A DNA stretch of 64,000 nucleotides from an uncultured Actinomycetes bacterium (lineage in GTDB: Bacteria > Actinomycetota > UBA4738 > HRBIN12), in NCBI GenBank assembly GCA_963723855.1, contig CAVRSI010000038.1, positions 4,282-68,281 on the forward strand. Direction: 5' to 3'. The notes beneath the pieces are model-generated. The model worked only from the letters and a program-made list of their open reading frames with translations, made no database searches and was not told the origin of the DNA. The position numbers and the translations under genes are program-made. Shown here piece by piece: positions 19,920 through 38,371 of the stretch (position 1 is the first letter of the stretch; the number at the start of each line of letters is the position of its first letter).

Positions 19920-20693
19920 ATGAGCGCCATCCCATCGGCCTCGGACGGGTTCCGTGCCATCTGTGATCCGATCTGGCGTGCGCTGCACGAGCACCCGTTC
20001 ATCACGGAGCTCGCGGCGGGAACGTTGCCGCTCGAGAAGTTCCGCTTCTTCCTCGAACAGGACAACTTCTACCTGGAGGAGTACGCGCGCTGTCTGGCGA
20101 TGGGCGCGGCGAAGTCGCGCACCGAGGCCGAGCTCCGCTACTTCACGACCGATCTGAACCAGGTCCTGGACGCGGAGCTTCCGAGCAACCGGGCGTTGCT
20201 CGAACGGGTGATCGAGATGGGAGCGGCGGACCGCGGAGGCTCGCTCGCGATGGCCCCGGCCAACGTCGCGTACACGAGCTACATGCACTCGCTCGCGCTG
20301 CGCGGCGGTCCGCTCGAGATCATGGCGTCGCTCCTCCCCTGCGCGTGGAGCTACGTCGAGATCGCTGCCGATCTGCGGGAACGCACCGATCTCGAACACC
20401 CCGCCTACGGCGGATGGATCGCCTACTTCAGCCTTCCGTCGAACGTCGAGATGGTCGATGCGATGCGTCGGGACTTCGACGCGCTCGTCGCCGAGGAGGT
20501 CACCACCGACGCCCGGCGCGACGACATCGGCCGGATCTTCGCCACGAGCTCCCGGCTCGAGCGGTCGTTCTGGGACATGGCGTACACGCTCGAGCGGTGG
20601 CCCGACCTCTCGCCGAACCGTAGCCGCCACGGCTGCCTTGACCGCGTCGCGTCCACCGATGTACGGTCGCGCCCTTCGCGATGTGATGCCTGA
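19920..20693 (+). CDS. tenA: TenA-family aminopyrimidine aminohydrolase (thiaminase II)
   Basis: Inner ATG at 19920. HPFITELAAGTLPLEKFRFFLEQDNFYLEEYAR is TenA-like, the catalytic-Cys motif LLPCAWSYVEI is present, and the tail has SFWDMAY. The last ~30 codons look non-conserved. Confidence 0.8.
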   Translation: MSAIPSASDGFRAICDPIWRALHEHPFITELAAGTLPLEKFRFFLEQDNFYLEEYARCLAMGAAKSRTEAELRYFTTDLNQVLDAELPSNRALLERVIEMGAADRGGSLAMAPANVAYTSYMHSLALRGGPLEIMASLLPCAWSYVEIAADLRERTDLEHPAYGGWIAYFSLPSNVEMVDAMRRDFDALVAEEVTTDARRDDIGRIFATSSRLERSFWDMAYTLERWPDLSPNRSRHGCLDRVASTDVRSRPSRCDA

Positions 20694-20720
20694 GATATCA
20701 GATACCAAGCAGGGGGGTCC

Positions 20721-21529
20721 GTGGGAGGTCGCGCACCGATCGACACGAGCCCGACGCCCGCCCCCAACCCCGACAACCAGGACATCGGGATCGCGTTCAC
20801 GCGGGTCCGCAAGGCGTTCGGCGAGGTGCTCGCGCTCGAGGACGTGACGTTCGAGATCGAGCGACACGCCCGGATCGGGATCGTCGGCCCGAGCGGCGGC
20901 GGGAAATCGACCCTGCTCCAGCTGACGGCCGGGTTGCTCGAGCCCGACGGCGGCGTCATCAACGTCGAGGGCGAGACCGAGCGCGACCGGCCGGCTCGCG
21001 CGCTGCGCGATGATGCCCCAACGCGACCTGCTGCTGCCGTGGCGGACCGCGTTGGACAACGCGATGATCGCGCTGCAGAACCGCGGCGTCGTCGCGGAAC
21101 GAGGCGCGCGCGAAGACGCGCCCGTACTTCGAGCACTTCGGTCTGGCGGAGTTCGAGGACGTGCTTCCGGCCAAGCTCTCCGGCGGCATGCGGCAGCGGG
21201 TCAGCTTCCTGCGGACGCTCATGGCCGAGAAGGACGTCCTGCTGCTCGACGAGCCGTTCGGCGCGCTGGACTCGATCACGCGCGCGCAGATGCAGGAGTG
21301 GCTGTTGCGCGCGCTGAGCGACGTCCCGCGCACGGTGCTGCTCGTCACGCACGACGTGGAGGAGGCGCTCGTGCTCAGCCGCACCGTCGTCGTGATGTCG
21401 GCGCGGCCGGGGCGCGTGGTGAAGGTGATCGACTCGGACCTGCAGACGGCCGGCCGCTCCCGGCGCGAGATCGTGACGAGCCCGGACTTCGTGTCGCTCA
21501 AGGAAGCGGCGCTCGAGGCGCTCGAATGA
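20721..21529 (+). pseudogene. ABC transporter ATP-binding protein (NitT/TauT family, ThiZ-like), two frame breaks
   Basis: Walker A is GPSGGGKST. After ...GETERDRPARA the text continues in a second frame (MPQRDLLLPWRTALDNAMIAL), with a break near 21000. It then moves to a third frame (PYFEHFGLAEFEDVLPAKLSGGMRQRVSF...LLLDEPFGALD), with a break near 21120. Confidence 0.75.
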
Positions 21530-22374
21530 ACACCGAGGCTCCTCCCCAGCCGTCGGCGGACGCCGCGACGATCCCCGACCGCGCTCCCGCGCGCAAGCGC
21601 TCCGGGTGGGCTCGGTTCTGGCGGGCGTACGGCCTCGCGGTCCTCTTCTCCCTGATCATGCTCGGGATCTGGGAGTTCGCCATCTGGGTGTTCCACGTCC
21701 CGAAGTACCTGTTGCCGTCGCCGTCCCAGATCGCCATCTCGCTCAAGAACGATTGGGGGCCGTACCTGGCTCCCGCCACGTGGGTGACGCTCCGCGAGGT
21801 GCTGATCGGGTTCCTGATCGCCGCGGTCGCCGGCGTGGGGCTGGCGATCGTGCTGCACATGTTCACCCCGCTCCGGCGGGCCGTGTACCCGCTGCTGATC
21901 GGGTCGCAGACGATCCCCATCGTCGTGCTGGCCCCGATCCTGGTGATCCTCTTCGGCTACGGGATCCTGCCCAAGCTCGTGATCGTCGCGCTGATCTGCT
22001 TCTTCCCCATCGTCGTGAACGGCCTCGACGGGCTCCGCCAGGTGGACGACGACTTCCTCCGGATGATGAAGACGCTCGACGCGAACCGCTGGGCGATCTT
22101 CCGACGGGTCGAGTTCCCCGGCGCGCTCCCGTCGATCTTCTCGGGCATGCGGATCGCGGCCACGTTCGCGGCGATCGGCGCCATCTTCGGCGAGTGGGCG
22201 GGTGCGAGCGCGGGCCTCGGATACGTGATCCTGCAGGCCACGCCGAACCTCCAGACCGCGCGGATCTTCGCCGCGATCTTGATCCTGACGCTGATCGCGA
22301 TGGCGCTGTTCGGACTGGTGTCGCTCCTGGAGCGGATCTTCGTTCCGTGGGCGCCGAAGGGGGCAGGGATGTAG
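21526..22374 (+). CDS. ABC transporter permease (NitT/TauT family, ThiX-like)
   Basis: ATGA overlap with the ATPase gene. The product is a multi-TM protein with an EAA-like loop (MKTLDANRWAIFRRVEFPGALPSIFSGMRIA). Confidence 0.85.
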   Translation: MNTEAPPQPSADAATIPDRAPARKRSGWARFWRAYGLAVLFSLIMLGIWEFAIWVFHVPKYLLPSPSQIAISLKNDWGPYLAPATWVTLREVLIGFLIAAVAGVGLAIVLHMFTPLRRAVYPLLIGSQTIPIVVLAPILVILFGYGILPKLVIVALICFFPIVVNGLDGLRQVDDDFLRMMKTLDANRWAIFRRVEFPGALPSIFSGMRIAATFAAIGAIFGEWAGASAGLGYVILQATPNLQTARIFAAILILTLIAMALFGLVSLLERIFVPWAPKGAGM

Positions 22375-22453: not shown

Positions 22454-23532
22454 ATGGGTCGAGAATCGCAAGACGGTTCTCCGCCGTCGCCGCGCTGGCG
22501 TTCGTCGCCATCGTCGCCGCGGCGTGCAGCAACTCGTCGGACAACAGCGGGAACTCGTCGCCGTCGGCCTCGACGGCGACGACGGGCGCGACGGGCAGCG
22601 CCGCCCCGGCGCCCGCGTCGCTCACCGTGGAGCTCGACTGGGTGCCGAACCCGGACCACGTGGGCCTGTACTACGCCCAGGACAAGGGGTACTTCAGCGA
22701 CGCGGGCCTGACGATCGACCTGCGGTCTCCGTCCAACGCCGCCGACCCGATCAAGCTCGTCGGCCTCAACAAGGTGGACCTGTCGATCACGTACCAACCC
22801 GAGATGTTCTACGGCCAGCAGAACGATCTGCCGGTCATGGCGGTCGCCACCGTGGTCCCGGTGCCGCTGAACTCGATGATCGTCAGCCCCAGCCAGACGG
22901 TGACGTCGCTCGACCAGATCAGCGGCAAGTCCGTGGGCGTGACGGGTATCCCGAGCGACGACGCGTTCTACACGACGATGCTGAAGACGGCCGGCCTCAC
23001 CGCCGGCGACGTCACGAAGGTCAACGTCGGCTTCAACCTGGTGCCCTCGATCCTGTCCGACAAGGTCGACGCGATCATCGGCGGCTACCGCAACGTCGAA
23101 GCGATCCAGATCGAGCAGGAGACCGGGAAGAAGCCGACCGTCTTCCCGGCGGACCAGTTGGGCGTGCCGAGCTACGCCGAGCTCGTGGTGGCCGCGAACT
23201 CGGACCGGCTGCAGTCCGACGCCGCGTACGCGGACGCCGTGACCCGGTTCGTCGCGGCGCTCGTCAAGGGGACCGACGGCGCCATCGCCGACCCCACCGG
23301 CGCGACGGAGATCATGAAGAAGGCAACCCAGTACGACCCGAAGTTCCTGGACGAGAGCGTGCCGTACACGCTGACCCTGCTGACGCCGGCCTCCGGCACG
23401 AAGACGGGCTGCATCGACGTCGCGAACTGGCAGAGCTACGGCGACTGGATGCAGACGAACCAGCTCATCACCGGCACGCCCGACGCGAGCGCGATCGCGA
23501 CCGATCAGTACATGCCGTACAGCTGCACGTGA
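22454..23532 (+). CDS. ABC substrate-binding lipoprotein, NMT1/THI5-like (ThiY-like)
   Basis: The mature part reads ELDWVPNPDHVGLYYAQDKGYFSDAGL (NMT1/THI5 type). The same frame is open upstream and encodes a lipoprotein signal (SRIARRFSAVAALAFVAIVAAAC) but has no start codon. The only ATG with an SD (22454) is one nucleotide out of phase, so a 1-nt indel right after the start is suspected. Confidence 0.7.
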
Positions 23533-23563: not shown

Positions 23564-24779
23564 GTGGATGTAGGGACCGGATCGACGTTCGTCGCGGAGA
23601 GCGTGCTGCGCGCGCTCGACCTCGGGCGGGCGGTGGACCTCGTGCAGGAGGTCTGCCGCATCCCGAGCGTCCTCGGCGAGGAGGGCGACCTGGCTGCGTT
23701 CCTCGCGTCGGTGATGCGCGAGTCCGCGTTCGACGACGTGGAGCTGCAACCGGTGGTGGAGGACCGCCCCAACGCCGTCGGGCACGTCTCGCTCGGAGAC
23801 GGCCCGACGGTGGTCCTCACCGGCCACATGGACACGAAGCCGGTGTCCCACGGGTGGAGCGTGACCGAGCCGTTCTCGGGAGCGCTGATCGACGGGGCGG
23901 TGTACGGCCACGGCGTGATGGACATGAAGGCGGCGCTCGCCTGTCAGATCGTCGCGATCGAAGCCGTTCGCGCGTCGGGCCTGCCGGCTCACGGCCGGCT
24001 GGCCATGGCGGCCGTCTCCGACCACATGGGCGATCAGCTGGGATCGATCGCGTACTTCGACACGCATCCGGCCGACCTCTGCGTGCTCGGCGAGCTCACC
24101 GACAACCAGGTGTGCCTGGGGCATCGCGGTCGGTACTACTTCGACGTCACGACCCGCGGTCGCTCGGCGCACACGTGCCACAAGCCGCAGGCGATCAACG
24201 CGAACGTGCTGGCGGCGCAGGCGGTCCTGGCGCTGGACGCGTCGAAGTACGAGCCCGATCTGGAGCCGTGGGTCGTGGACCTGTTCGGTGCGGAGACCTA
24301 CGTGGTGCCGGGCCGCATCTACGGCGGTCTCGCACCCGGCGGCCCCTCGATGATCCCGGACGAGTGCGTGATCCGCGTGGACTGCCGGCCGCAGCCTGGC
24401 GTGACGATCGAGGAGGTCCGCGCGGAGATCGATCGCTGCCTGGCGGTCGCGGCGGAGGCCGACCCCCGCTTCGAGGCCGACGTCGAGCTCGCCGACGTGA
24501 AGTCGGGCTACCTGGCCGATCCGGGCGACGAGGTCGTCCGGCTCATGCGGGATGCCGTTCGCGAGGTGCGCGGGGGCGAGGAACCGCCGCTCGTCGTCGA
24601 GAACTGGCTCGGCGACACGGCGAGCTTCGGCATCGAAGGTGCCGACGGTGATCTTCGGGCCCGGCGGACCTCCCGTGTACTGCCCCGACGAGCACCTCAC
24701 CGTCGCGGACATCGAAGAAGCGACGAAGGTCTACGCGGTGTTCGCCGCGCTCGCGCTGACGTCCGGGGAAGGGGCATGA
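23564..24779 (+). pseudogene. M20 family metallohydrolase (ArgE/DapE/YlmB-like), one frame break near the C-terminus
   Basis: The text GPTVVLTGHMDTKPV, GHGVMDMKAALA and LGHRGRYYFDVTTRGRSAH is M20-like. After ...GDTASFGI the conserved ending VPTVIFGPGGPPVYCPDEHLTVADIEEATKVYAVFAALAL continues in ORF 24552..24779, with a break near 24635. Confidence 0.7.
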
Positions 24780-24785: not shown

Positions 24786-25749
24786 ATGCAGGGTGAGGTC
24801 GGGTTCGCCAACGTGCTCGACCGCTGTCTGGCCGTGCGTGAGGGCGAACAGGTCGTCCTGCTGACCGACGAGGGGACCGACCCCGCCGTGGTCGCAGGGT
24901 TGGTCGCGGGGATCGAGCATCGTCGAGGCGTGCCCGTGGTCTCGACGATGCCGGTCCCCGCGCTTCCCGGTGCGGAGCCGCCGAACGATGTGGCGGCTCA
25001 GATGCGCGGAGCCGGCGCGGTGATCGAGCTCACGAGCCTGTTCATCGGGTCGAGCGCCGCCCGCAGGGAGGCGACGGCGATCGGCGTCCGGTACCTCGCG
25101 ATGCCGGGCGTCCGGCTCGAGACGTTCCGCGACGACGGTCCGCTCGCGGTGGACTTCGACCGGATCCGTGGCGACGCCGAGCGCATCGGCGACGCGTGGG
25201 GCTGCGGCGTCGAGGTTCCGACTGACCACACCGGCCGGCACCGACCTGCGTGGATCGGTCGAGGGCCGGCCGGGACGCGTGCTCCACGGTCTCGCGCGCG
25301 AGGACGGCGCGTACATGGCCCCGCCCGACATCGAGGCGGGCACGGCGCCGGTCGAGTCCTCGAGCTCCGGGGTCGTGGTGGTCGACGCCGACCTGCTGTT
25401 CATGGGCGAAGGGCCGCTGCCGTCGCCGGTCGTGCTCCACATCGCCGACGGCGCGATGGTCGGCGTGGAGGGCGACGAAGCGGGCCGGCTGGAAGAGATG
25501 CTCGCCCGGTGCGACGACGACCGGATGTCGAACCTGGCCGAGGTCTCGATGGCGTTCAACCCGTCGGGACGCGTGTGCGGCGTGGCGATGGAGACCGAAT
25601 CGGCGCTCGGCACCGCGCACATCGCGCTCGGCAACTCGATCGCGTACGGCGGCACCGTCGACGCGATCGCGCACCTGGACTGCGTGATGAAGGACGCGAC
25701 GCTCGAGCTGGACGGGCGTCCGGTCATGGTCGCCGGGGTGCTGGTGTGA
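24786..25749 (+). pseudogene. M29 aminopeptidase-T / NicX-like fold protein, one frame break
   Basis: The N-terminal half is in ORF 24786.. (VLLTDEGTDPAVVAGLV...IELTSLFIGSSAARREA). The C-terminal half is in ORF 25168..25749 (RLTTPAGTDLRGSVEGRPG...GTAHIALGNSIAYGGTVDAIAHLDCVM). The break falls in the GGGG run near 25198. Confidence 0.6.
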
Positions 25750-26153
25750 GCCCGGCGCGCGTGCTGCTGGCGAAGCCCGGTCTCGACGGGCACGACCGTG
25801 GGATCAAGGTCATCGCGATGGCGCTGCGCGACGCCGGCGCCGAGGTCATCTACCTCGGCATCCGCCGGAGCGTCGACGAGATCCTGCAGGCGGCGATCGA
25901 CGACGACGTCGACGCGATCGGGATCTCGATGCTGTCCGGCGCCCACCTCCCGTTGGTCCGCGAGCTCATCACACGTCGCGCCGAGCTCGGCCTGGACACA
26001 CCGGTCGTCCTCGGCGGCACCATCCCCGCCGCCGACGTGGCGACCCTCCTCGAGATCGGCGTGGCGGCGGTCTATCCGGCCGGCACGGATCTTCGCGACG
26101 TCGTGAACGGGATCCTCGCCGCAGCCGGGTCCCGGGAGCGGGTCGGATCGTGA
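25746..26153 (+). CDS. cobalamin-binding small subunit of a split acyl-CoA mutase
   Basis: GTG at 25746 overlaps the previous stop (GTGA). LLAKPGLDGHDRGIKVIAMALRDAGAEVIYLG contains the B12 DxHxxG motif. Confidence 0.85.
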   Translation: MSPARVLLAKPGLDGHDRGIKVIAMALRDAGAEVIYLGIRRSVDEILQAAIDDDVDAIGISMLSGAHLPLVRELITRRAELGLDTPVVLGGTIPAADVATLLEIGVAAVYPAGTDLRDVVNGILAAAGSRERVGS

Positions 26154-27754
26154 GCGGCCCCACGTCCGCGAGGTCACCACCGATGCCGGCATCCCGGTGC
26201 GCGAGACGTACACGGCCGCCGACGTCGCCGAGCGGGCTCGCCGATCGCCTCGGCGCGCCGGGGGAACCGCCGTTCACGCGCGGACCCTACCCGTCGATGT
26301 ACCGCGGGCAGCTGTGGACGATGCGGCAGTTCGCGGGGTTCGGATCGCCCGAGGAGGCGAACGAGCGATTCCGGTTCCTGCTCGACCGCGGCCAGACGGC
26401 GCTCTCCGTCGCCTTCGACCTGCCGACGCAGCTCGGCTACGACTCGGGTCACCCGACCGCCCTGGCCGAGGTCGGGCGGGTCGGCGTCGCGATCGACACG
26501 GCCGACGACATGGCGGACCTGTTCGCCGGGCTGCCGCTCGACGAGGTCTCCGTCAACTTCACGATCAACGCGACCGCCCCGATCATCCTGGCGATGTACC
26601 TGGTGGCGGCCGAGCGGCAGGGGGTGGCGCCCGAGCGCCTCGCCGGCACGCTGCAGAACGACATCCTGAAGGAGTTCCTCGCCCGCAAGACGTACGTCTT
26701 CCCGCCCGAGCCCTCGATGCGGCTGTCGTGCGACGTGATCGAGTTCGCGTCGCAGAACCTCCCACGGTTCAACCCGATCTCGATCACCGGCTACCACGCG
26801 CGCGAGGCCGGATGCGACGCGATCCAGGAGCTCGCGCTCACGTTGGCGTCCGCGATCGCGTACTCGGAGGCGCTGATCGCGCGCGGGCTCGCGTTCGACA
26901 CGTTCGCCCCACGGCTCTCCTTCCACTTCGCCACCACCATGGATCTGTTCGAGGAGGTGGCGAAGCTCCGCGCCGCACGGCGCATGTGGTACCGGATCGC
27001 GACCGAGCGCTTCGGCGCGAAGGACGCGAACTCCGGCCGGCTCCGGTTCTTCTCCGGGAACTCCGGCACCACGCTCACGGCGCAGCAACCGCTGAACAAC
27101 CTCATCCGGTCCACCGTGCAATGCCTGGGCGCGGTGCTCGGCGGCGCGCAGTCGATCCACGTCATGGGCTACGACGAGGCGTTCCAGATCCCGTCGGAGG
27201 AGGCCGTGACGCTGTCGCTGCGCACCCAGCAGATCGTCGCGCTCGAGTCCGGCGTCCCGCGCACCGCCGACCCGCTCGCCGGCTCGTACTTCGTCGAGCA
27301 CCTCACCGACGAGCTCGAGGCGCGGGCGAACGACGTGCTCGACGAGATCGACGCGCTCGGCGGCGCGGTCGCCGCGATCGAGCGCGGCGTCCCGCAGCGA
27401 TGGATCGCCGAGTCCGCCTATCGGATCGAACGGGCCGTCGGCGACGGCACGCGGCCGCGCGTCGGGGTGAACGTGCACGCCGATCCCGACGAGGCTCCGG
27501 TCGAGCTTCCCGAGGCGTTCGTCCTCGACCCCGGCGTCGTCGAGCGGCAGGTCGCGCGCACCGCGGCCCGGGTCCGTGCGCGCGACGGTGCCGCGTGCTC
27601 CGACGCGATCGCGGCCGTCGACGCGGCGGCGCGCGAAGGGCGAAACGTCATGCCCGTGCTCGTGGACGCCGCGCGCGTGGGTGCGACGCTCGGCGAGCTG
27701 TCGGACGCGTTCCGCGGCGTGTTCGGCGAGTTCCGGGAGCCGGACCCGTGGTAG
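26150..27754 (+). CDS. methylmalonyl-CoA-mutase-family large (catalytic, TIM-barrel) subunit
   Basis: GTGA overlap with the small subunit. The text FTRGPYPSMYRGQLWTMRQFAGFG, LSVAFDLPTQLGYDS, GTLQNDILKEFLARKTYVFPP and ISITGYHAREAG is mutase-like. Codons ~4-28 read better in another frame (HVREVTTDAGIPVRETYTAADVAE), so two compensating breaks near 26160 and 26233 are possible. Confidence 0.85.
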   Translation: MSGPTSARSPPMPASRCARRTRPPTSPSGLADRLGAPGEPPFTRGPYPSMYRGQLWTMRQFAGFGSPEEANERFRFLLDRGQTALSVAFDLPTQLGYDSGHPTALAEVGRVGVAIDTADDMADLFAGLPLDEVSVNFTINATAPIILAMYLVAAERQGVAPERLAGTLQNDILKEFLARKTYVFPPEPSMRLSCDVIEFASQNLPRFNPISITGYHAREAGCDAIQELALTLASAIAYSEALIARGLAFDTFAPRLSFHFATTMDLFEEVAKLRAARRMWYRIATERFGAKDANSGRLRFFSGNSGTTLTAQQPLNNLIRSTVQCLGAVLGGAQSIHVMGYDEAFQIPSEEAVTLSLRTQQIVALESGVPRTADPLAGSYFVEHLTDELEARANDVLDEIDALGGAVAAIERGVPQRWIAESAYRIERAVGDGTRPRVGVNVHADPDEAPVELPEAFVLDPGVVERQVARTAARVRARDGAACSDAIAAVDAAAREGRNVMPVLVDAARVGATLGELSDAFRGVFGEFREPDPW

Positions 27755-31037: not shown

Positions 31038-31456
31038 GCTGGCACGTCACCTCGCTGCACCACGTCGCGATCGCCCACGGGGACGACCCGGTGTGCGAAG
31101 ACGCGATGACGATGTTCCTCGGCGCGCCCGCGCACGCGGAGCACGGACCCGGCTTCCTCGAGCGGATGTATCCGGCGGGCGGCGCGTACGTGCAGACGTT
31201 GGAGGCCGAGGGCGACGGGTCGGTGCAGCGGTTCCTGGACCGGCGCGGACCGGGGTTGCATCACGTGGCGTTCGCGGTCGACACGATCGACGCCGCGCTC
31301 GCCGACCTGGACGCACGCGGCGTGTCGTTGATCGACCGCGAGGCGCGGCCGGGAGGCATGGGGACGCGGATCGCGTTCCTGCACCCGTCGGCGACGGGCG
31401 GGGTGCTCGTCGAGCTCGTGGAGGAACCCGAGGAGACAGGGGAACGCGATGGATAA
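31034..31456 (+). CDS. VOC family protein, methylmalonyl-CoA-epimerase-like
   Basis: ATGA overlap with the previous gene. LHHVAIAHGD...RRGPGLHHVAFAVDTIDAALADLDARGV...IAFLHPSATGGVLVELVE is epimerase-like. Confidence 0.75.
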   Translation: MSWHVTSLHHVAIAHGDDPVCEDAMTMFLGAPAHAEHGPGFLERMYPAGGAYVQTLEAEGDGSVQRFLDRRGPGLHHVAFAVDTIDAALADLDARGVSLIDREARPGGMGTRIAFLHPSATGGVLVELVEEPEETGERDG

Positions 31457-32189
31457 CGAGCCGCTCGATACCGCGCAGGCCGACCAGGTGTTCACCGGGC
31501 AGCACGACCGGCGCAAGGTGACCGATTGGGTGTGCGAGGAGATCCGCGAGGCGATCATCGATCTGCGGCTGCATCCCGGCGAGCCGCTGCGCGAGGCGGC
31601 GATCGCCCAACAGCTCGGCGTGAGCAAGACGCCGATCCGCGAGGCGCTCGCCCGGCTCGAGCAGGAAGGGCTGGTCGAGGCGACGTCGTTCAAAGGTGCG
31701 GTGGTGAGCGGCTACTCGCCGCGCGACCTGGAGGAGATCTACGAGCTCCGGAGCATCCTGGAGGGCGCCGCGGTCCGCGGCGTGGCCCTCGACGCGTCCG
31801 AGGAGGCGCGCGCGGAGCTCTTCGAGGTCATCGCGCGCAGCCGAGAGCTCCGCGATGCCGGCGAGCTGACCGAGCTCGCGGCCCTCCTCGGGCGTTTCGA
31901 CCAGATCATCTACGACCAGGTCACGAACCGGCGGATCCGCGCGTTGATCGACAACCTCCGCGCCCACCTGACCCGGATCGGCAAGCTCACCGAGGGCATC
32001 CCCGGCCGGGTGGAAGCGTCGGTCGAGGAGCACGCCGTCATCGTCGAGGCGATCATGGGGCGCCGGGCCGACGAGGCCGAACGGCTGATGCGCGCGCACA
32101 TCGAGAGCGTGCTGGGCGACCAGCTGGCGGGCACGCCGACGCCCGCGACGGCGGACGAGGTCGGACTGTCCGGGGCACCGCATGTCTGA
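31449..32189 (+). CDS. GntR family transcriptional regulator (FadR/FCD-type C-terminal domain)
   Basis: 8-nt overlap with the previous gene. LHPGEPLREAAIAQQLGVSKTPIREALARLEQEGLV is the GntR HTH, and the C-terminus is helical and FCD-like. Confidence 0.85.
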   Translation: MDNEPLDTAQADQVFTGQHDRRKVTDWVCEEIREAIIDLRLHPGEPLREAAIAQQLGVSKTPIREALARLEQEGLVEATSFKGAVVSGYSPRDLEEIYELRSILEGAAVRGVALDASEEARAELFEVIARSRELRDAGELTELAALLGRFDQIIYDQVTNRRIRALIDNLRAHLTRIGKLTEGIPGRVEASVEEHAVIVEAIMGRRADEAERLMRAHIESVLGDQLAGTPTPATADEVGLSGAPHV

Positions 32190-32907
32190 TGGAGCGCGAG
32201 CCATGTCGCAGGCGCCCGCGCGTGTGTCGGCGATCCTGCACGAAGCGGGGGCGGATGCGTGGGCCGCGGCGGTCACGCATCCGATGGTGCGCGCGATCGC
32301 GGACGGGTCGCTCCCCCACGAGACGTTCCGCCGTTACTTCATACAGAACGTCCTGTATCTGGAGGGATACGCCCGCGCGATCGGGCTCATCGTGGCCAAG
32401 GCGCCGGACCGGGATGCGATCACCACGCTCTCGCGGTTCCAGTCGCAGATCGTCGAGACCGAGATCCCGGCGAACCTGGCGTTCCTCGAACGGCTCGGCG
32501 GAGACGAGGCGACCGCCGACGGCCGCGGGACGATGCTGCCGACCACGTACGCCTACACCCGCCACCTGCTCTCGACCTGCCTGCTGGGCGATTGCGCCGA
32601 CGGGCTCACCGCCGTGCTGCCGTGTCAGTGGAGCTACGGCGAGCTCGCGCGGCCGCTCACGGCGAACCCGCCCGCCGATCCGATCTACGCGGACTGGATC
32701 GCGATGTTCGGCAACGACGCGTACGACCGCCTGGTCGCGGAGACCACCGCGCTGCTCGACCGGCTCGTCGATCCCGCCGACCGGACCAGGATCGCGGCGC
32801 TCTCGCCGATCTTCGAACGTTCGACCCGATATGAAGCGGAGTTCTGGGATATGGCCTACGGGAACCCCCGGCCGGCCGGTCTCCCCGACGAAGGAGGAAC
32901 CCCCTAG
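32182..32907 (+). CDS. TenA-family protein (second copy)
   Basis: 8-nt overlap with gntR, with an alternative ATG at 32203. HPMVRAIADGSLPHETFRRYFIQNVLYLEGYAR, the catalytic-Cys motif VLPCQWSYGEL and EFWDMAY are present. Confidence 0.75.
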   Translation: MSDGARAMSQAPARVSAILHEAGADAWAAAVTHPMVRAIADGSLPHETFRRYFIQNVLYLEGYARAIGLIVAKAPDRDAITTLSRFQSQIVETEIPANLAFLERLGGDEATADGRGTMLPTTYAYTRHLLSTCLLGDCADGLTAVLPCQWSYGELARPLTANPPADPIYADWIAMFGNDAYDRLVAETTALLDRLVDPADRTRIAALSPIFERSTRYEAEFWDMAYGNPRPAGLPDEGGTP

Positions 32908-33933
32908 ATGCGTGCCGTGCGGATCCACGACGATCTCTCGCTCCGTGTGGACGAGATCGACGACCTCGCGCCCGGGCCGGGCGAGGTGCTCGTGCGTGTC
33001 CACGCCGCCGGCGTGTGCGGGACCGACCTGCACATCCTCGACGGCATGATCAAGCCGGACCCGTATCCGATGACGCTCGGCCACGAGGCGGCGGGGATCG
33101 TCGAGGCGGCGGGCGACGGCGCGTCGCTCGCTTCGGGGACGCCGGTCGCGATCTACAACAAGATCTTCTGCGGCCGGTGCGAGCAATGCCTGAAAGGTCG
33201 CACGAACATCTGCGACAACGAGCCCGACCAGCTCGGCTTCAACCGCGACGGCGGCGACGCGGAGTACGTGGTGGTCCCCGAGCAGAACGCCGTGCCGATC
33301 CCCGACGGCGTCGACCTCGCGACCGCGGCGGTCCTCACATGCGCCGGCATGACGGCCATGCACGCGACCAAGCTGTCGGGCCTTCGGCTGGGCGACACGG
33401 CGGTCGTCGACGGGATCGGCGGCGTCGGGATCCTGGTGGTCCAGGCCGCGGCACATGCCGGCGCGCGCGTGATCGCGATCGGCGACTCCGAGGACAAGCT
33501 GTCGCTCGCCGCCGATCACGGAGCATCCGACGGCATCCTGGTCGACACCGCCGACGGCTACGACACGGTGGCCGACCGGATCCGGGCGCTGACGGGGGGC
33601 CGGGGCACCGACGTGTTCTTCGAGCTGGTGGGGACCACGCAGACGATGACCGCCGGCATCCGGTCCCTGGCGAAAGGCGGCCGGTTCGTGTCGACCGGCT
33701 ACACCGACCAGTCGATCGACATCCACCCGATCGAGTTCATCCTGCCCGAGACGTCGCTGATATCGACCGTCGCGGCGACGCGGCTGGACCTGCAGGACGC
33801 GATGAGCCTGTCCGCGGCAGGCGCGATGACCGTCCCGATCGCCGGCCGGTACCCGATGGAGGGCATCGACGACGCGCTCGGCGCGCTGCGCAAGCGCGCG
33901 GTGCTCGGCCGTCAGGTGCTCGAGCTCGCCTGA
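32908..33933 (+). CDS. zinc-dependent medium-chain alcohol dehydrogenase
   Basis: The ATG directly abuts the previous TAG. GVCGTDLHILDG, GHEAAGIV, CGRCEQCLKGRTNIC and GIGGVGILVVQ are MDR signatures. Confidence 0.85.
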   Translation: MRAVRIHDDLSLRVDEIDDLAPGPGEVLVRVHAAGVCGTDLHILDGMIKPDPYPMTLGHEAAGIVEAAGDGASLASGTPVAIYNKIFCGRCEQCLKGRTNICDNEPDQLGFNRDGGDAEYVVVPEQNAVPIPDGVDLATAAVLTCAGMTAMHATKLSGLRLGDTAVVDGIGGVGILVVQAAAHAGARVIAIGDSEDKLSLAADHGASDGILVDTADGYDTVADRIRALTGGRGTDVFFELVGTTQTMTAGIRSLAKGGRFVSTGYTDQSIDIHPIEFILPETSLISTVAATRLDLQDAMSLSAAGAMTVPIAGRYPMEGIDDALGALRKRAVLGRQVLELA

Positions 33934-33956
33934 CCACCCCTTCGAAGGAGGAACGC

Positions 33957-35468
33957 ATGGCATCGACGATCACGGAGCCGCCGGTCGGCTTCCTGGGCGA
34001 ACCGCTCCGCCTCTACATCGACGGGGCGTTCGTGGAGACCGAGGGGAGCCTCGCCACGGTGAACCCGGCGACCGGGCGGACGCTCGCCGAGGCGCCGCTC
34101 GCGACCGAGCGCGAGGTCGGCGCCGCGGTGACCGCGGCCGCGCGCGCGTTCGACGTATGGCGCTTCACACCGCCCACGCAACGCGCGCGACTGATGTGGC
34201 ACCTCGCCGATCTGCTCGAGGCGAACAAGGACGAGTTCGCGACGCTGGAAGTGCTCGACAACGGCAAGCCGATGTGGGAGGCGCAGGCCGTCGACATCGC
34301 GCTCACGATCGAGCTGCTGCGCTACTACGCCGGGTGGACCACCAAGATCGAGGGCAAGGTCCTGCCGAACTCGATCCCCGGGATGTTCACCGTCGCGAAG
34401 CGCGAACCGGTCGGCGTGGTCGCGGCGATCACCCCGTGGAACTTCCCGCTGCTCGAGGTCGGCTACAAGCTCGGCCCGGCGCTCGCGGCGGGCTGCACGA
34501 TCGTGATCAAGCCGTCGGAGCTCGCTCCCCTGTCCACGCTGCGCCTGATGCAGCTGGTGGACGAGGCCGGGTTCCCGCCCGGGGTCGTGAACGTGGTGAT
34601 CGGCGGGCCCGACGTCGGCGCCGCGCTCGTGCGGCATCCGGGCGTGCGGAAGGTCGCGTTCACCGGACAGACCGCCACCGGCAAGGAGATCATGCGGACC
34701 GCCGTCGACGGGTTGAAGCGCGTCACGCTCGAACTCGGCGGGAAGAGCCCGAACATCGTGTTCGCCGACGCCGACCTCGATGCCGCCGCGGGCGGGGCGT
34801 TCGGGGGGATCTTCTTCAACCAGGGGCAGGCCTGCGTCGCCGGCTCACGCCTGTTCGTCGAGGCGCCGGTGGCCGACGAGCTGGCCGATCGGGTCGCCGC
34901 GCAGGCGGGAACGATCCGCCTCGGCTCGGGCCTGGACCCCGAGACGCAGATGGGGCCGCTGATCTCCGCGGCGCACCGCACGCGTGTGCGCGGCTACGTC
35001 GACTCCGCGCGCGAGCAGGGCGCCGAGGTCGCCGTCGGCGGCGGCGATGCCTCGGTGCAGGGGTTCGAGGGCGGGTTCTTCCTGGAGCCCACCGTGCTCC
35101 GGCACGTGCGCAACGACATGAAGGTGGCCCAGGAGGAGATCTTCGGTCCGGTGCTGTCGGTGATCCCGTTCGCCGACGAGGACGAGCTGCTGACGCTCGC
35201 GAACGCGAACGACTACGGCCTGGCGTCCGGGATCTGGACGTCCGACGTGAACAAGGCGCTCCGCGTGGCCGACCGGCTGGACGCGGGGACCGTGTGGATC
35301 AACACGTACGGGATGTTCGACGTGTCCGTCCCGTTCGGCGGGCGCAAGCACTCCGGGTTCGGCAAGGAGCTCGGCGAGGAAGCGCTGGAGCCGTACCTGC
35401 ACTCGAAGTCCGTCTGGGTGGACCTCACCGCGGCGGTGCCGCAGTCCGGGCAAGGGATCTCGCGATAG
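33957..35468 (+). CDS. NAD(P)-dependent aldehyde dehydrogenase
   Basis: ATG follows GAAGGAGG. VAAITPWNFPL, ELGGKSPNIVF, FFNQGQACVAGSR and EEIFGPV are ALDH signatures. Confidence 0.9.
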   Translation: MASTITEPPVGFLGEPLRLYIDGAFVETEGSLATVNPATGRTLAEAPLATEREVGAAVTAAARAFDVWRFTPPTQRARLMWHLADLLEANKDEFATLEVLDNGKPMWEAQAVDIALTIELLRYYAGWTTKIEGKVLPNSIPGMFTVAKREPVGVVAAITPWNFPLLEVGYKLGPALAAGCTIVIKPSELAPLSTLRLMQLVDEAGFPPGVVNVVIGGPDVGAALVRHPGVRKVAFTGQTATGKEIMRTAVDGLKRVTLELGGKSPNIVFADADLDAAAGGAFGGIFFNQGQACVAGSRLFVEAPVADELADRVAAQAGTIRLGSGLDPETQMGPLISAAHRTRVRGYVDSAREQGAEVAVGGGDASVQGFEGGFFLEPTVLRHVRNDMKVAQEEIFGPVLSVIPFADEDELLTLANANDYGLASGIWTSDVNKALRVADRLDAGTVWINTYGMFDVSVPFGGRKHSGFGKELGEEALEPYLHSKSVWVDLTAAVPQSGQGISR

Positions 35469-35485
35469 CGAAGGGGGGACGCACG

Positions 35486-36811
35486 ATGAGCGACCGGATC
35501 ATCATCAAGAACGGCACCGTCGTCACCATGAACGACGCCGACGACGTGATCTTCGGCGGGACCGTGGTGATCGAGGACGACCGCATCACGGACGTCGGCA
35601 CCACGGCCGACGTCGCGGGACGGACCGACGAGAGCGGCGCGACCGTGATCGACGCCACCGACAAGGCGGTGATGCCGGGACTGGTTGACCTGCACTACCA
35701 CACCGCCGTCGGCAAGGGCTGGAGCGACCACCTGCCGCTCTGGGAGTACCTGGACACCTGCTGGTACCCGATGATCCGCGCGCTCAACCCGGAGGAGGCC
35801 TACTGGGCGGCGCTCGCGAGCTACAGCGAGTCCATCAAGTGCGGTGTCACCACGGTGAACGACATGTACCGGCAGCTCGGCGGGCTGGCGAAGGCCGCCG
35901 AAGAGATCGGGATCCGCGCCGTCTTGTCCAACGACGTGGCCGACGACGAGCACGACCTGGACACGCTCGACGACAACAAGCTCGCGTACGAGCAGTCGAA
36001 CGGCGCGGCGAACGGACGCATCGAGGTCTACATCGGCATCGAATGGCTGCCGCTCGCCTCGGAGGGATTGTTGAAGGAGACCCGCGCGCTCGCGGACGAC
36101 CTCAACACCGGCATCCACATCCACCTGAACGAATCGCTCACCGAGGTGGAGAACTCCAAGCAGCGGTTCGGCCGTCGCCCGACGGAGGTGGCCTACGACT
36201 GCGGCATCCTCTTCGACCGGTGTATCGCGGCGCACTGCGTCTGGCTCTCCGACGTCGAGATCGCGCTCATGCGCGAGACCGGGACGCAGATCTCGCACAA
36301 CCCGTCGTCCAACGCGAAGCTCGGCAACGGCATCGCGCGGGTGCCCGAGATGCTCGCGGCCGGGCTGAACGTCGGGCTCGGGCACGACGCCGCCGAGTGC
36401 AACAACAGCCTGGACATGTTCGAGGTGATGAAGTTCGCGTCGTTGATGCACCGCGCCAGCCGCGTGGACCCGAGCCTGCAGCAGGCGCCGGACGTCGTGC
36501 GGATGGCGACGCGCAACGGCTCCGCGGCGCTTCAGCACGAGACCGGAGAGGTCGGCGTCGGCAAGAAGGCCGACGTCATCGTGATCGACCTGGCGAACCA
36601 GATGTTCACGCCGCTCTACCCGGAGTCGAAGGCCCACATCTACTCGCACCTCGTCTTCGCGGCGAACGGGAGCGCGGTGAACACGACGATCGTGGACGGC
36701 AAGATCCTGTACCGCGATCACGCGTTCACGACGATCGACGAGCCCAAGGTGCTGCACGAGGCGAACGTCGCGTTCCAGGCCGTGCTCGAGCGCATGGTCG
36801 TTCCCACGTAG
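35486..36811 (+). CDS. amidohydrolase (TRZ/ATZ - cytosine/guanine-deaminase-like chlorohydrolase/aminohydrolase family)
   Basis: IIIKNGTVVTMND, PGLVDLHYHTA, IHIHLNES and SHNPSSNAKLGNG are family-typical. It is read from the in-frame tail of ORF 34157..36811. Confidence 0.85.
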   Translation: MSDRIIIKNGTVVTMNDADDVIFGGTVVIEDDRITDVGTTADVAGRTDESGATVIDATDKAVMPGLVDLHYHTAVGKGWSDHLPLWEYLDTCWYPMIRALNPEEAYWAALASYSESIKCGVTTVNDMYRQLGGLAKAAEEIGIRAVLSNDVADDEHDLDTLDDNKLAYEQSNGAANGRIEVYIGIEWLPLASEGLLKETRALADDLNTGIHIHLNESLTEVENSKQRFGRRPTEVAYDCGILFDRCIAAHCVWLSDVEIALMRETGTQISHNPSSNAKLGNGIARVPEMLAAGLNVGLGHDAAECNNSLDMFEVMKFASLMHRASRVDPSLQQAPDVVRMATRNGSAALQHETGEVGVGKKADVIVIDLANQMFTPLYPESKAHIYSHLVFAANGSAVNTTIVDGKILYRDHAFTTIDEPKVLHEANVAFQAVLERMVVPT

Positions 36812-36820
36812 GAGGCGCGC

Positions 36821-38371
36821 GTGCGCACGCTCGTCCTCGGCGACCCGGTCGTCGCGCTCGGCGACCGGACGCTGATCCCGGACGGCGCGCTCATCGTCGA
36901 GGGGCCGGCGATCGTCGCCGCCGGCCCGCGCGCGGAGCTCGAGGAGCGGGGACCGTTCGACCGGGTGCTCGGCTCCGGCGCGCACTTCGTGCTGCCGGGC
37001 TTCGTCAACGCGCACTACCACTCGGAGCTCGCGATCGGGCCCGGCCTGTACCAGTTCATCTTCGAGCGTGCGAACGTCTTCATGCAGGGCGGCGTCGGCG
37101 ACGTCGAGGAGGACGACCTGTACGCGGGCGTGCTCTGGGGCCTGGTCAACGCGATCAAGGGCGGGCAGACCGCGACCGTCGACATGTACTACGGCCGTCC
37201 GGGGATGACCGACTTCGGATGCCGGCCGGCGTTGCAGGCCTACGAGGACGTCGGGATACGCACGGCGTTCGGGCTGGTCAGCCGCGACGAGAACATCTAC
37301 GTGCACGAGCCGAACGAGCGGTTCCTGTCACGGTTGCCCACCGACCTCGCCGACGAGGTGCGCCGCTCCCCCATGGGCTACGCGTGGCCGGTCGAGGACG
37401 TGATGGGGGCCTTCGAGCGGCTCTCGGCGGACTGGCACGGCCGAAGCGACCGGATCCGCATCGTCACCGCGCCGGACTGGACGCCGGCGTGCTCCGACGA
37501 GCTGTACCGACGCTGCCGCCGCGTGGCGGACGAGCACGCGACCGGCATGATCACGCACGTCCTGGAGACTCGCTCGGAGATGCTCTACAACCTGGAGCGC
37601 TACGGGAAGCCGGCGCTCCGGCGCCTCGTCGACATCGGCGTGCTCACGACGCAGACCGTGCTCGAGCACTTCGTCTGGGTCACGGACGAGGAGCTGGCGA
37701 TCTTCGCGGAGTCGGGCGCGGTGGCCTCGAACAACCCGGGGTCGAACCTGCGCCTCTCCAGCGGGATCTGCCGCGTGCGCGACATCATGGACACCGGTGG
37801 CCGGATCGCGTTCGGCACGGACGGGATCTCGTTCTCCGATCGCGAGGACTTCTTCCAGGAGCTCCGCCTCGCGTGCTACCTGCAGCGGTTCCCGCGGACG
37901 TTCGAGCGGCAGCGGCTGGACAGCGAGGCCGTGTTCCGCGCCGCGGCGGCGAACGGCGCGCGGGCGCTCGGGTTGGAGGATCGTCTGGGATCGCTCGAGC
38001 CCGGTCGCTACGCCGACCTGTTGATCGTCGAGAAGGAACGGATCCTGTTCCCGCCGGGGCGCTACGACGCAGAGCCGTTCCTCGACGTCGTGATCGACCG
38101 TGCCGACTCCTCCGACATCGACACGGTCATGGTGCACGGGCGCGTCCTGATGGAAGGCAAGCGGGTCACCGTGGTCGATGAGGACGCCGTGAAGGCTCGG
38201 TTCGCGGAAGCGGTGCACCGCAGGATGTACCGCCTGCCGGAGCACGTGCGGCGGTGGGCCGCGCTCGGGCCGCTCGTCGAACCGTACGTCATCGACTTCT
38301 ACCAGCGCTGGTACGACACGCCGATCGAGCCCGCATACGGATACAACGCGCAGGTCCCGCCGGTCGTGTGA
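36821..38371 (+). CDS. amidohydrolase family protein (second, divergent, 516 aa)
   Basis: GTG start. LPGFVNAHYHSE, ITHVLETRSE and SNNPGSNLRLSSG are family-typical. A long C-terminal extension is present. Confidence 0.8.
   Translation: MRTLVLGDPVVALGDRTLIPDGALIVEGPAIVAAGPRAELEERGPFDRVLGSGAHFVLPGFVNAHYHSELAIGPGLYQFIFERANVFMQGGVGDVEEDDLYAGVLWGLVNAIKGGQTATVDMYYGRPGMTDFGCRPALQAYEDVGIRTAFGLVSRDENIYVHEPNERFLSRLPTDLADEVRRSPMGYAWPVEDVMGAFERLSADWHGRSDRIRIVTAPDWTPACSDELYRRCRRVADEHATGMITHVLETRSEMLYNLERYGKPALRRLVDIGVLTTQTVLEHFVWVTDEELAIFAESGAVASNNPGSNLRLSSGICRVRDIMDTGGRIAFGTDGISFSDREDFFQELRLACYLQRFPRTFERQRLDSEAVFRAAAANGARALGLEDRLGSLEPGRYADLLIVEKERILFPPGRYDAEPFLDVVIDRADSSDIDTVMVHGRVLMEGKRVTVVDEDAVKARFAEAVHRRMYRLPEHVRRWAALGPLVEPYVIDFYQRWYDTPIEPAYGYNAQVPPVV

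Follow-up and report, generated by a model that had tools for sequence, protein, structure and literature searches.

Regarding the salvage of base-degraded thiamine, the route that Jenkins et al. are said to have described in Bacillus in 2007 reportedly comprises formylaminopyrimidine (FAMP) import by ThiXYZ, deformylation by YlmB, and hydrolysis by TenA. In the present study, we analyzed a window of 64,000 nucleotides from an uncultured Actinomycetes bacterium (contig CAVRSI010000038.1, positions 4,282 to 68,281, forward strand), in which 18 plus-strand genes packed in 19920-38371, together with a displaced Amidohydro_2 gene, make up a cluster of 19 genes (Table 1). We propose that this cluster is a conserved catabolic unit controlled by a GntR/FCD regulator, which would take up a thiamine-type 4-aminopyrimidine (hydroxymethylpyrimidine [HMP], aminomethyl or N-formyl-aminomethyl forms, possibly thiamine) and break it down into ammonia, small acids, and a dicarboxylic acyl-CoA, which a dedicated coenzyme-B12 mutase would rearrange into a central metabolite; we give this proposal an even chance of being correct. 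The cluster resembles the Bacillus system in its canonical TenA (TenA1), its binding protein with ThiY as the nearest solved relative, the same layout of ATP-binding cassette (ABC) genes, and the M20 hydrolase (M20a) that follows them. It differs in that the window lacks a thiamine pyrophosphate (TPP) riboswitch, M20a lies in a core with the mutase and is not demonstrable as YlmB, 14 more conserved genes are present, including a second TenA (TenA2) with an Asp44-to-Asn exchange, and an NCS1 permease substitutes for the importer in other genomes.

Pyrimidines are catabolized by the reductive PydABC route, the Rut route (RutA-G), and the URC route, and in fungi by thymine-7-hydroxylase and iso-orotate decarboxylase. 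To our knowledge, none of these routes has a TenA, a CoA-transferase, or a B12 mutase. As in the known routes, the predicted functions of the cluster are to deaminate the compound, reduce its ring, open it by hydrolysis, and release an N-acyl group with an M20-type enzyme; as in the fungal pair, a one-carbon substituent at C5 would become a carboxylate, and an Amidohydro_2 gene stands at the operon end. In contrast to the PydA and RutA routes, the candidate reductase is an F420-dependent luciferase-like oxidoreductase (LLM), and the amidohydrolases belong to the deaminase subtype rather than to the dihydropyrimidinases.

A report from the 1960s is said to describe the bacterial oxidation of HMP to a pyrimidine carboxylic acid (PCA) in a cultured organism, a system known without genes or later steps; the carriers in the present study are uncultured Actinomycetota. 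The alcohol dehydrogenase (ADH) and aldehyde dehydrogenase (ALDH) encoded beside TenA in the cluster would make the same acid from HMP. The environmental fate of the thiamine pyrimidine has been without genes since that report, and the cluster provides a conserved set of 19 candidates. PCA is formed by microbes, its fate is unknown, and it was listed as an orphan product in 2024 (PMC11223231). Our literature searches returned no description of this cluster, of catabolic genes for HMP or PCA, or of an aminomethyl- or hydroxymethyl-malonyl-CoA mutase.

In the indoleacetate (iaa) pathway, the mutase is reportedly paired with a CoA-transferase. Split mutases of the 2-hydroxyisobutyryl-CoA mutase (HCM) subclass act together with an epimerase on 2-substituted malonyl-CoA, as described for ActD and MatB/MatQ (PMC5719088), and a mutase of the indoleacetate pathway is encoded in the iaa operon (PMC8360864). 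The mutase of the cluster resembles ActD and MatB/MatQ in its separate subunits, its nearest structure (HcmA), the adjacent methylmalonyl-CoA epimerase-like protein, and the retention of Arg207; it shares the split-subunit layout and the best PDB score (4R3U) with HCM, and the adjacent family III CoA-transferase with the iaa pathway. Unlike ActD and MatB/MatQ, it carries the residues F89, F328, G330, N331, V365, and M366, and it occurs with hydrolases and deaminases rather than in a biosynthetic context. A reading of the locus as a biosynthetic gene cluster, which was prompted by the actinonin and matlystatin mutases, was set aside because importers, deaminases, and GntR/FCD are present and crotonyl-CoA carboxylase/reductase, nonribosomal peptide synthetase, and polyketide synthase genes are absent.

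The enzyme families in the cluster are all known and a GntR-controlled catabolic operon is familiar; what is new are two enzyme subfamilies and possibly a route for pyrimidine catabolism. Whatever the substrate, the cluster delimits a mutase subclade with an invariant active-site signature and a TenA subfamily with Asn for Asp. It would also tie F420 and B12 chemistry to the breakdown of N-heterocycles in abundant uncultured soil Actinomycetota, a connection relevant to how vitamin B1 is cycled and to cross-feeding in soils and sponges.

Conservation and regulation of the cluster

Relatives were collected by scanning one genome per GTDB species, which gave 80 loci (L003-L082), and by an exact-protein look-up, which gave L001 and L002; presence was counted over 59 loci, namely, 58 fetched loci (L001-L058, flanks of approximately 10 kb each) and the window. 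In L001-L058, the mutase large subunit was 64-98% identical to that of the window, and cluster genes were present wherever the contig was long enough, while the 24 loci with a mutase of the isobutyryl-CoA mutase (ICM) type at approximately 52% identity (L059-L082) had essentially no cluster genes nearby. The recurring order was M20a, NicX-like, B12 subunit, mutase, CoA-transferase, M20b, LLM, VOC, GntR, TenA2, ADH, ALDH, Amh1, Amh2, and Amidohydro_2, with start and stop codons overlapping along the core. In L002 (mutase 86% identical), the whole cluster was intact with the ABC genes inverted. All carriers among the fetched genomes were uncultured and comprised Actinomycetes, metagenome-assembled genomes (MAGs) labelled Streptosporangiaceae, Acidimicrobiia, and sponge-associated Candidatus Spongiisociaceae; relatives of the mutase large subunit number in the thousands in metagenomes, and the cluster is widespread and abundant in soil metagenomes.

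The earlier note on this DNA had hypothesized a single unit under GntR control that processes an imported compound of the aminopyrimidine kind and had proposed a search for recurring gene order. This search was run, and the order recurred in the 58 fetched loci, all from uncultured Actinomycetota. Homologues of the genes in 24786-38371, the lack of whose synteny with tenA/thiXYZ-like genes had been named as grounds for rejection, were syntenic with such genes in approximately 24 of the 59 loci (window counted), and the second TenA gene was inside the core in 48. Synteny, exchangeable transporters, a shared palindrome, and a mutase that is not of the methylmalonyl-CoA mutase (MCM) type now give this unit good support from comparative genomics, with the substrate and the chemistry still inferred.

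TenA1 and the ThiY-type ABC importer were found in approximately 24 loci. In 14 other loci, an NCS1 permease (Pfam Transp_cyt_pur) took the importer's place directly upstream of M20a; it matched the NCBIfam models for NCS1 and for the putative HMP transporter CytX, both below cutoff. M20a was always beside the NicX-like and mutase genes, even in loci without TenA1 or the ABC importer. Judging from gene order, M20a is a member of the invariant core and therefore falls outside any separable salvage module, and TenA1 and the ABC genes alone are the variable module of an uptake or salvage type. The division into a first five genes of known salvage and a remaining fourteen of another kind, as had been suggested, consequently does not hold at its fifth gene.

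An AT-rich palindrome of 16-18 bp (CATATAAGATCTTATATC type, consensus CATAT[A/C]AGATCT[G/T]ATATC) was conspicuous in these G+C-rich genomes. Allowing up to 2 mismatches, the palindrome TATNAGATCTNATA had 36 hits in 23 cluster loci against 3 in 24 non-cluster loci. The sites were nearly all intergenic and were located upstream of the M20a, ABC ATPase, or NCS1 gene, between GntR and TenA2, and before extra Amh copies; examples from L014-L057 are 7182-7197 in L021 and 5522-5537 and 14365-14378 in L020, and full palindromes in L020, L022, and L057 stand at the place equivalent to the spacer between TenA1 and the ATPase gene. In that spacer, a position weight matrix scan of the window detected the half-site GATATCAGATACC, the reverse complement of which contains the right half of the palindrome, TCTGATATC; the same string occurs in L011, and this is weak evidence. 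The lineage to which the window belongs has no full site. The distribution of sites is good evidence that the transporter, core, and TenA2 operon form one regulon in the palindrome-bearing lineages. The regulator that binds the palindrome is presumably the encoded GntR/FCD protein, in which the N-terminal winged-helix GntR domain and the C-terminal FCD domain are both present.

These findings bear on the possibility that the locus is a chance juxtaposition of a thiamine salvage operon, ordinary propionate/methylmalonyl-CoA metabolism, and unrelated hydrolases. It would account for the common occurrence of every one of the families in Actinomycetota, for the inverted orientation of TenA1 and the ABC genes with respect to the core in L002, L004-L006, and L011, and for the many loci that lack TenA1 and the ABC genes. 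However, the order is kept in 58 loci across Actinomycetes, Acidimicrobiia, and sponge symbionts, the start and stop codons in the core overlap, TenA2 and GntR lie inside it, and the same palindrome precedes the transporter, M20a, and TenA2. Furthermore, the mutase signature is not that of MCM, and no family of the MeaB type recurs nearby. Chance juxtaposition is thus already contradicted, and we consider it to be very unlikely.

The composition of the cluster varied among lineages. Sponge-symbiont loci had ADH, ALDH, a short gap, M20a, NicX-like, the mutase subunits, CoA-transferase, M20b, LLM, and VOC, and the TenA2 and Amh genes were not nearby. Acidimicrobiia versions (L030, L032, L035, L037, L040, L045, and L053-L055) had no NicX-like gene and carried a third, distant deaminase-type amidohydrolase that was approximately 29% identical to Amh1; in L037, L045, and L053-L055, the second amidohydrolase after Amh1 scored closer to Amh1 than to Amh2. 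Amidohydro_2 directly followed Amh2 with a 4-nt overlap of the stop in L083-L086, and the same adjacency was found in a dozen loci of the genome scan. The gene in the window, which is 84-92% identical to the overlapping gene of L083, is on the minus strand 3.1 kb from Amh2, with esterase-like fragments (38385-39285, minus strand) and a DrrA-type ABC-2 exporter (39419-41499, plus strand) in between, and looks as if it was displaced by a local rearrangement, inversion, or insertion.

The mutase, TenA2, and other enzymes

The mutase has both an MM_CoA_mutase catalytic domain and a separate B12-binding subunit, and its nearest PDB entries were HcmA (4R3U, E approximately 1e-149 to 1e-156) and then several MCMs. 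Active-site positions were assigned by motif in 54 orthologues and are given in the numbering of Propionibacterium shermanii MCM. The signature F89/R207/Y243/H244/F328/G330/N331/V365/M366 was invariant except at F89 (53 of 54) and N331 (52 of 54). Relative to MCM, Tyr89 is replaced by Phe, His328 by Phe, Gln330 by Gly, Thr331 by Asn, Thr365 by Val, and Asn366 by Met, with Arg207, Tyr243, and His244 kept. Position 207 was Arg in all 54 orthologues and not the Gln of ICM, whereas the clade at approximately 52% identity (L059-L082) had the Phe/Gln pair of ICM; at the HCM positions, the mutase has Phe where HCM has Ile (the Tyr89 site) and Ala where HCM has Asp117. A plain MCM, ICM, or HCM identity was ruled out by this residue signature, and the mutase is, from its predicted active site, a new and sharply delimited subclade that keeps the carboxylate-binding Arg and fits none of the three classes. 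A plain MCM, which had been named beforehand as an outcome speaking against the hypothesis, was accordingly not what we found.

No family of MeaB/ArgK-type G-protein chaperones recurred within approximately 10 kb on either side in the 58 loci or in 14-46 kb of the window; in the same regions, the only recurring families beyond those of the train itself were NCS1, Amidohydro_2, and the third Amh. The nearest NCBIfam models of the CoA-transferase were dicarboxylate CoA-transferases, all below cutoff. The VOC protein belongs to Pfam Glyoxalase_4, and its L002 orthologue scored 90.9 bits on TIGR03081, the cutoff of which is 114.95.

The two TenA proteins differed in the salvage_TenA model TIGR04306 (cutoff 130), on which TenA1 scored 154 bits and TenA2 120.8 bits. 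In TenA1, Asp44, Cys135, and Glu205 (Bacillus subtilis numbering) were kept in 18, 18, and 19 of 19 orthologues, respectively, with the full set in 18. In TenA2, the position of Asp44 was Asn in all 40 orthologues, Cys135, Glu205, Tyr47, and Tyr112 were invariant, and Tyr163 was kept in 36. A search of 1.8 billion representatives returned only Asn among TenA2 relatives of at least 48% identity that covered position 44. More distant TenA proteins mostly had Asp-Cys-Glu; since nine full-length representatives at 33-39% identity to TenA2 had Asn-Cys-Glu (P0261, P0262, P0280, P0294, P0308, P0314, P0319, P0322, and P0358), the Asn variant is not confined to this cluster. On the basis of these residues, TenA2 is a TenA subfamily with Asn for the catalytic Asp and a predicted new enzyme subtype.

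M20a matched only generic deacylase (ArgE/DapE) models in NCBIfam, all below cutoff, and its PDB relatives were ArgE, DapE, and the aromatic aminohydrolase NaaA; it had been called YlmB-like, of which the M20 family stands, while orthology to YlmB is not demonstrable. M20b and M20a had local similarity only. A PDB search with the NicX-like protein returned NicX (7CN3) alone, with E values of 2.7e-5 for the single sequence and 5.7e-8 for the profile, and the local copy of Pfam gave zero matches to this protein. The equivalents of His318 and Asp320 (His296 and Asp298) were invariant, and the Fe(II) ligand His265 of NicX was replaced by an invariant Glu252. Because the similarity is restricted to the C-terminal half and His265 is Glu, a dioxygenase role is not established, and a hydrolase role is putative. 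A relationship to M29 aminopeptidases was rejected since the PDB profile search gave only NicX and local Pfam nothing, which leaves the weak NicX similarity from the proposed M29/NicX fold.

The LLM, for which F420 or FMN had been suggested, is a luciferase-like oxidoreductase that we narrowed to the F420 type, since its NCBIfam matches were many F420-dependent LLM models with Mer first (below cutoff). No RutA model was among these matches at E values up to 1e-5, and a RutA-like role was rejected. In the NCBIfam ranking, the ALDH was closest to BADH, StyD, and aminobutyraldehyde-dehydrogenase models, with the CoA-acylating methylmalonate-semialdehyde dehydrogenase (MMSDH) far weaker. The nearest models of Amh1 were deaminases, and the HxH, HxxE, His, and Asp motifs by which deaminase-type amidohydrolases are recognized were present in Amh1 as well as in Amh2. 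The best solved relative of the Amidohydro_2 protein was the uncharacterized BB4693 (E 2.5e-11), followed by LigJ hydratase, LigW, and ACMSD (E 1e-6 to 1e-4), so that this protein could be a decarboxylase, a hydratase, or a hydrolase.

Candidate substrate and pathway

The link to a thiamine pyrimidine is suggested by TenA1, which passes the equivalog cutoff, by the binding protein, the best solved relative of which is the FAMP-binding ThiY 3IX1 (E 2.1e-38 in a PDB search), by the CytX-like character of the alternative NCS1 permease, and by L011, in which a TPP riboswitch precedes TenA1. In the latter locus (2700-4344), the riboswitch narrowly exceeds the gathering score at 54.7 bits. Behind it come a frameshifted open reading frame (ORF) resembling thiamine pyrophosphokinase (thiN-like), which was named by eye only from a GDxDS-type motif and the C-terminal region, and then TenA1. 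This was the sole riboswitch in seven sequences, comprising the window and six relatives.

We infer the substrate and each of the following steps from the predicted enzymes. A 4-aminopyrimidine would be imported by the ABC or NCS1 system, an N-formyl or N-acyl group would be taken off by an M20 enzyme, and TenA1 or TenA2 would exchange the group on the C5-methylene carbon for a hydroxyl group, yielding HMP. ADH and ALDH would then oxidize the hydroxymethyl group to the 5-carboxylate of PCA, the 4-amino group may be removed by Amh1, the ring may be reduced by the F420H2-dependent LLM, and ring opening (or decarboxylation) may be performed by the NicX-like or Amidohydro_2 protein. The resulting acetamidine would be hydrolyzed by Amh2, as HutF does with a formimino group, and M20b would remove the acetyl group. 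The branched C4 unit (C4, C5 with its C7 branch, and C6, a 2-substituted malonate) would be activated by the family III CoA-transferase and epimerized by the VOC protein, and the mutase would convert it to a succinyl-CoA-type product, from which CoA would return to the next substrate molecule.

This chemistry is proposed on four grounds. Formylaminopyrimidine has as many C-N bonds as the cluster has hydrolases, and PCA, the expected product of ADH and ALDH, is known to be made by microbes. C4-C5(C7)-C6 forms a 2-substituted malonate suited to a carboxylate-binding mutase with a CoA-transferase and an epimerase, and breaking down the 2-methyl amidine portion would call for a deiminase resembling HutF and a hydrolase of N-acetyl groups. 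The hydrolase-type enzymes are M20a, M20b, the NicX-like protein (putative), Amh1, Amh2, Amidohydro_2, and a further Amh in Acidimicrobiia, which we counted as seven.

Several points weigh against the proposed catabolism of a thiamine pyrimidine. The carriers among the fetched genomes are all uncultured. TenA1 and the ABC importer are missing from more than half of the loci, M20a is not demonstrable as a YlmB orthologue, and the sponge-symbiont loci have no TenA2 or Amh genes near the mutase module. In the window, no full palindrome was found within 3 mismatches, and no TPP riboswitch was detected upstream of TenA1 (no Rfam match at E values up to 1 in 18900-20200). Soil contains little thiamine-derived pyrimidine, an odd circumstance for a pathway of 19 genes conserved across two classes, and two or three deaminase-type amidohydrolases exceed the need of one 4-amino group. 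Moreover, an Amidohydro_2 protein resembling iso-orotate decarboxylase would remove the C5 branch and leave the mutase without an obvious substrate.

Considering these points, a serious rival is that the logic is the same, but the substrate is a related, more abundant N-heterocycle, such as another 5-substituted pyrimidine (5-methylcytosine/thymine, 5-hydroxymethylcytosine, or a bacimethrin-like antimetabolite), a poly-amino pyrimidine, or a pyridine, to which TenA2 and the ThiY-like protein were recruited. The uniform Asn of TenA2 at position 44, the residue of which contacts ring N1, the two to three deaminase-type amidohydrolases per cluster, the NicX-like protein, the wide occurrence and abundance in soil metagenomes, the lack of a TPP riboswitch in the window and in five of the six relatives scanned, and the sponge-symbiont variant without TenA all agree with this explanation. 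On the other hand, three thiamine-pyrimidine families co-occur in the cluster, namely, TenA (twice), the ThiY-type binding protein, and the CytX-like NCS1 permease, and L011 has its TPP riboswitch and thiN-like ORF beside TenA1. TenA chemistry, by its established mechanism, also requires a leaving group on the C5 methylene of a 4-aminopyrimidine. We regard a different heterocycle as possible, though distinctly less probable than a thiamine pyrimidine.

It is also conceivable that the cluster serves salvage or detoxification instead of catabolism, in that damaged or oxidized thiamine pyrimidines are returned to HMP, or toxic antivitamins are destroyed, with little gain of carbon or nitrogen. 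TenA1 and the ThiY-type importer are salvage-type proteins, TenA1 of L011 stands behind the TPP riboswitch and the apparent thiamine pyrophosphokinase-like ORF, and the fates of orphan thiamine damage products have been described as unknown (PMC11223231). However, the CoA-transferase, the epimerase-like protein, and the B12 mutase have no role in the regeneration of HMP, the ALDH groups with aldehyde-oxidizing models of the BADH/StyD type and has a weak MMSDH match, which makes a reductive role unlikely, and the cluster showed no ThiD kinase. An effector-independent palindrome together with a GntR/FCD regulator is, as is generally known, typical of catabolic operons, and we consider salvage or detoxification to be improbable.

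Returning to the catabolism of a thiamine pyrimidine, a more far-reaching version of it appears rather unlikely to us. The mutase may represent a new class of coenzyme-B12 acyl-CoA mutase acting on a heteroatom-substituted malonyl-CoA from C4-C5(C7)-C6 of the thiamine pyrimidine, for example, from (aminomethyl)malonyl-CoA to aspartyl-CoA or from (hydroxymethyl)malonyl-CoA to malyl-CoA. The 19 genes would then constitute a fourth, F420- and B12-dependent route of pyrimidine catabolism, from HMP-type compounds to aspartate or malate, acetate, and ammonia. If true, this route would fill a long-standing gap by explaining what becomes of the vitamin B1 pyrimidine in the environment.

State of the sequence, gene layout, and neighboring genes

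Eight genes of the cluster carry indels of 1-2 nt in the sequence as given, comprising seven in the train and the displaced Amidohydro_2 gene; the earlier note missed these frameshifts, and the seven train genes are not intact as they stand. The closest relative found was L001, with 95.6% nucleotide identity over 21 kb. Relative to L001, the indels private to the window are located in TenA1 (20607-8), the ATPase (20979, 21091), the binding protein (22462, 22470), M20a (24632), the NicX-like gene (25202), the mutase (26165, 26228), and the CoA-transferase (27848). The change at 20607-8 is a 2-nt insertion, those at 20979, 21091, 22462, 22470, 24632, 25202, and 27848 are 1-nt insertions, and the mutase has a self-compensating pair of a deletion at 26165 and an insertion at 26228, by which approximately 21 N-terminal codons are garbled in the alignment to L001. 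Removal of the extra bases in silico gave full-length, stop-free ORFs for six of the seven train genes, encoding TenA1 (233 aa), the ATPase (268 aa), the binding protein (358 aa with a lipoprotein signal), M20a (approximately 404 aa), the NicX-like protein (320 aa), and the CoA-transferase (399 aa).

These lesions raise the possibility that the upstream half (20.6-27.9 kb) consists of pseudogenes in decay, which would make the cluster non-functional in this organism. Nevertheless, the train lesions are all of 1-2 nt and private to this assembly, L001 carries different private indels of its own (M20a, NicX, TenA2, and Amh1), and comparable random breaks were found in many loci of long-read 'MFD' MAGs. 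Substitutions between the window and L001 were at codon position 3 in 65-90% of cases, in broken and intact genes alike (50% of 12 substitutions in the B12 small subunit), and in 68-86% of cases in the seven broken genes (83% in the ATPase). Because the indels are private to the window and different in L001, most ORFs are restored by the removal of bases, and substitutions are biased to codon position 3, we conclude from the alignments that the indels probably represent assembly errors, not decay, and that the genes appear to be under purifying selection. Pseudogene decay was rejected on these grounds, and we regard a non-functional cluster as the least probable of the explanations considered. 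Single-base indels are found along the whole window, for example at approximately 42274, and they also split genes beyond the cluster, as in the Pyr_redox_2 gene just upstream (18714-19847, minus strand); in 11.5-19.9 kb (11500-19900), the coding frames were all short and fragmentary. These observations fit a long-read assembly that is prone to errors.

At a G+C content of approximately 70% in the window, raw lists of the longest ORFs were swamped by spurious frames, and gene calls were therefore based on the G+C content of third codon positions (GC3) together with Pfam and NCBIfam. All the families named previously were present in the order given, and the train has 18 genes where 19 had been counted, a list that itself had 18 entries. 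Junctions within the train are mostly overlaps of 4-8 nt or spacers of up to 31 nt; the earlier limit of approximately 30 nt is exceeded at two places, by 79 nt before the binding-protein ATG at 22454 and by approximately 100 nt between TenA1 and the ATPase after correction of the TenA1 frame. No Rfam match reached the gathering score anywhere in the window, and a scan of the window for promoters and terminators gave no more hits than shuffled sequence.

Table 1. Features of the cluster in the window, with the number of the 59 loci in which each gene was present.
Feature	Positions	Strand	Loci (of 59)	Evidence and remarks
TenA1, canonical thiaminase II / aminopyrimidine aminohydrolase	19920-20693	+	18	PF03070; native stop ~20621-23, 233 aa; ORF as given lengthened by 2-nt insertion 20607-8
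Part of TenA1-ATPase spacer	20694-20720 (true spacer ~20624-20720)			Half-site GATATCAGATACC at 20694-20706
ABC ATPase, ThiZ-like	20721-21529	+		ABC_tran on both fragments; three frames via insertions
ABC permease, ThiX-like	21526-22374	+		BPD_transp_1
Lipoprotein binding protein, NMT1/THI5 (ThiY) type	22454-23532	+	24	PF09084 at 1e-56; ...AAAC lipobox
M20a, ArgE/DapE-type metallohydrolase, first gene of the invariant core	23564-24779	+	54	Peptidase_M20 and M20_dimer
NicX-like metalloprotein	24786-25749	+	47	PF26233:NicX precomputed on orthologues; PDB NicX 7CN3
B12-binding small subunit of acyl-CoA mutase	25746-26153	+	56	PF02310 at 6e-26; TIGR00640 on L002 orthologue
Acyl-CoA mutase large subunit, predicted new subclade	26150-27754	+	59	PF01642 (MM_CoA_mutase) at 9e-191
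Family III CoA-transferase	27748-28948	+	58	CoA_transf_3 at 9e-92; GTG start 27748
M20b, second, distantly related M20 metallohydrolase	28960-30030	+	49	Peptidase_M20 and M20_dimer
LLM, F420-dependent luciferase-like oxidoreductase, Mer-like	30027-31037	+	54	Bac_luciferase at 1.4e-52
VOC (vicinal oxygen chelate) / methylmalonyl-CoA-epimerase-like protein	31034-31456	+	40	Glyoxalase_4
GntR regulator with FCD effector domain	31449-32189	+	48	PF00392 at 5e-18 and PF07729 at 2e-24
TenA2, predicted cluster-specific TenA subfamily, Asn for Asp44	32182-32907	+	48	PF03070
Zn-dependent ADH	32908-33933	+	43	ADH_N and ADH_zinc_N
NAD(P)-dependent ALDH	33957-35468	+	36	Aldedh at 3e-178
Amh1, deaminase/chlorohydrolase-type amidohydrolase	35486-36811	+	46	Amidohydro_1 at 4e-60
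Amh2, second amidohydrolase of the same superfamily subtype	36821-38371	+	28 (often lost to the 10-kb flank limit)	516 aa; Amidohydro_1 at 7e-46; orthologues in same cluster position
Amidohydro_2 (AH2), apparently displaced last cluster gene	41515-42526	-		PF04909 at 1e-33; frameshift near 42274

The limits of the cluster were set as above because L002 and the window differ directly upstream of TenA1, and the contexts past Amidohydro_2 vary among loci. Upstream of the train, the window has TetR and MDMPI_N genes and the split Pyr_redox_2 gene; the other flanking genes encode the ABC-2 exporter, a DUF2231 protein, an Opp/Dpp-type peptide importer, an AAA_16 protein, a histidine kinase, a beta-lactamase-fold protein, and an AlkZ-like glycosylase.

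Neighboring genes in other loci may also be mentioned. In L040 (15728-16807) and L044 (15335-16438), the cluster ends early, after LLM or VOC, where it is interrupted by transposase genes (rve_3, DDE_3). Carboxyl-transferase genes are near the sponge-symbiont clusters of L041 (18661-20301) and L047 (19053-20630), and genes for two-domain rhodaneses (sulfurtransferases) adjoin the cluster in L021 (5308-6255), L044 (6428-7330), and L056 (3912-4793). An AurF-like di-iron oxygenase gene is located just upstream of the NCS1 permease in L027 (2522-5487), with equivalents in L031, L033, and L038, and a GH1 beta-glucosidase gene is likewise upstream of the permease in at least L027 and L033; these neighbors may be coincidental, or they may point to a substrate that is glycosylated or N-oxygenated.

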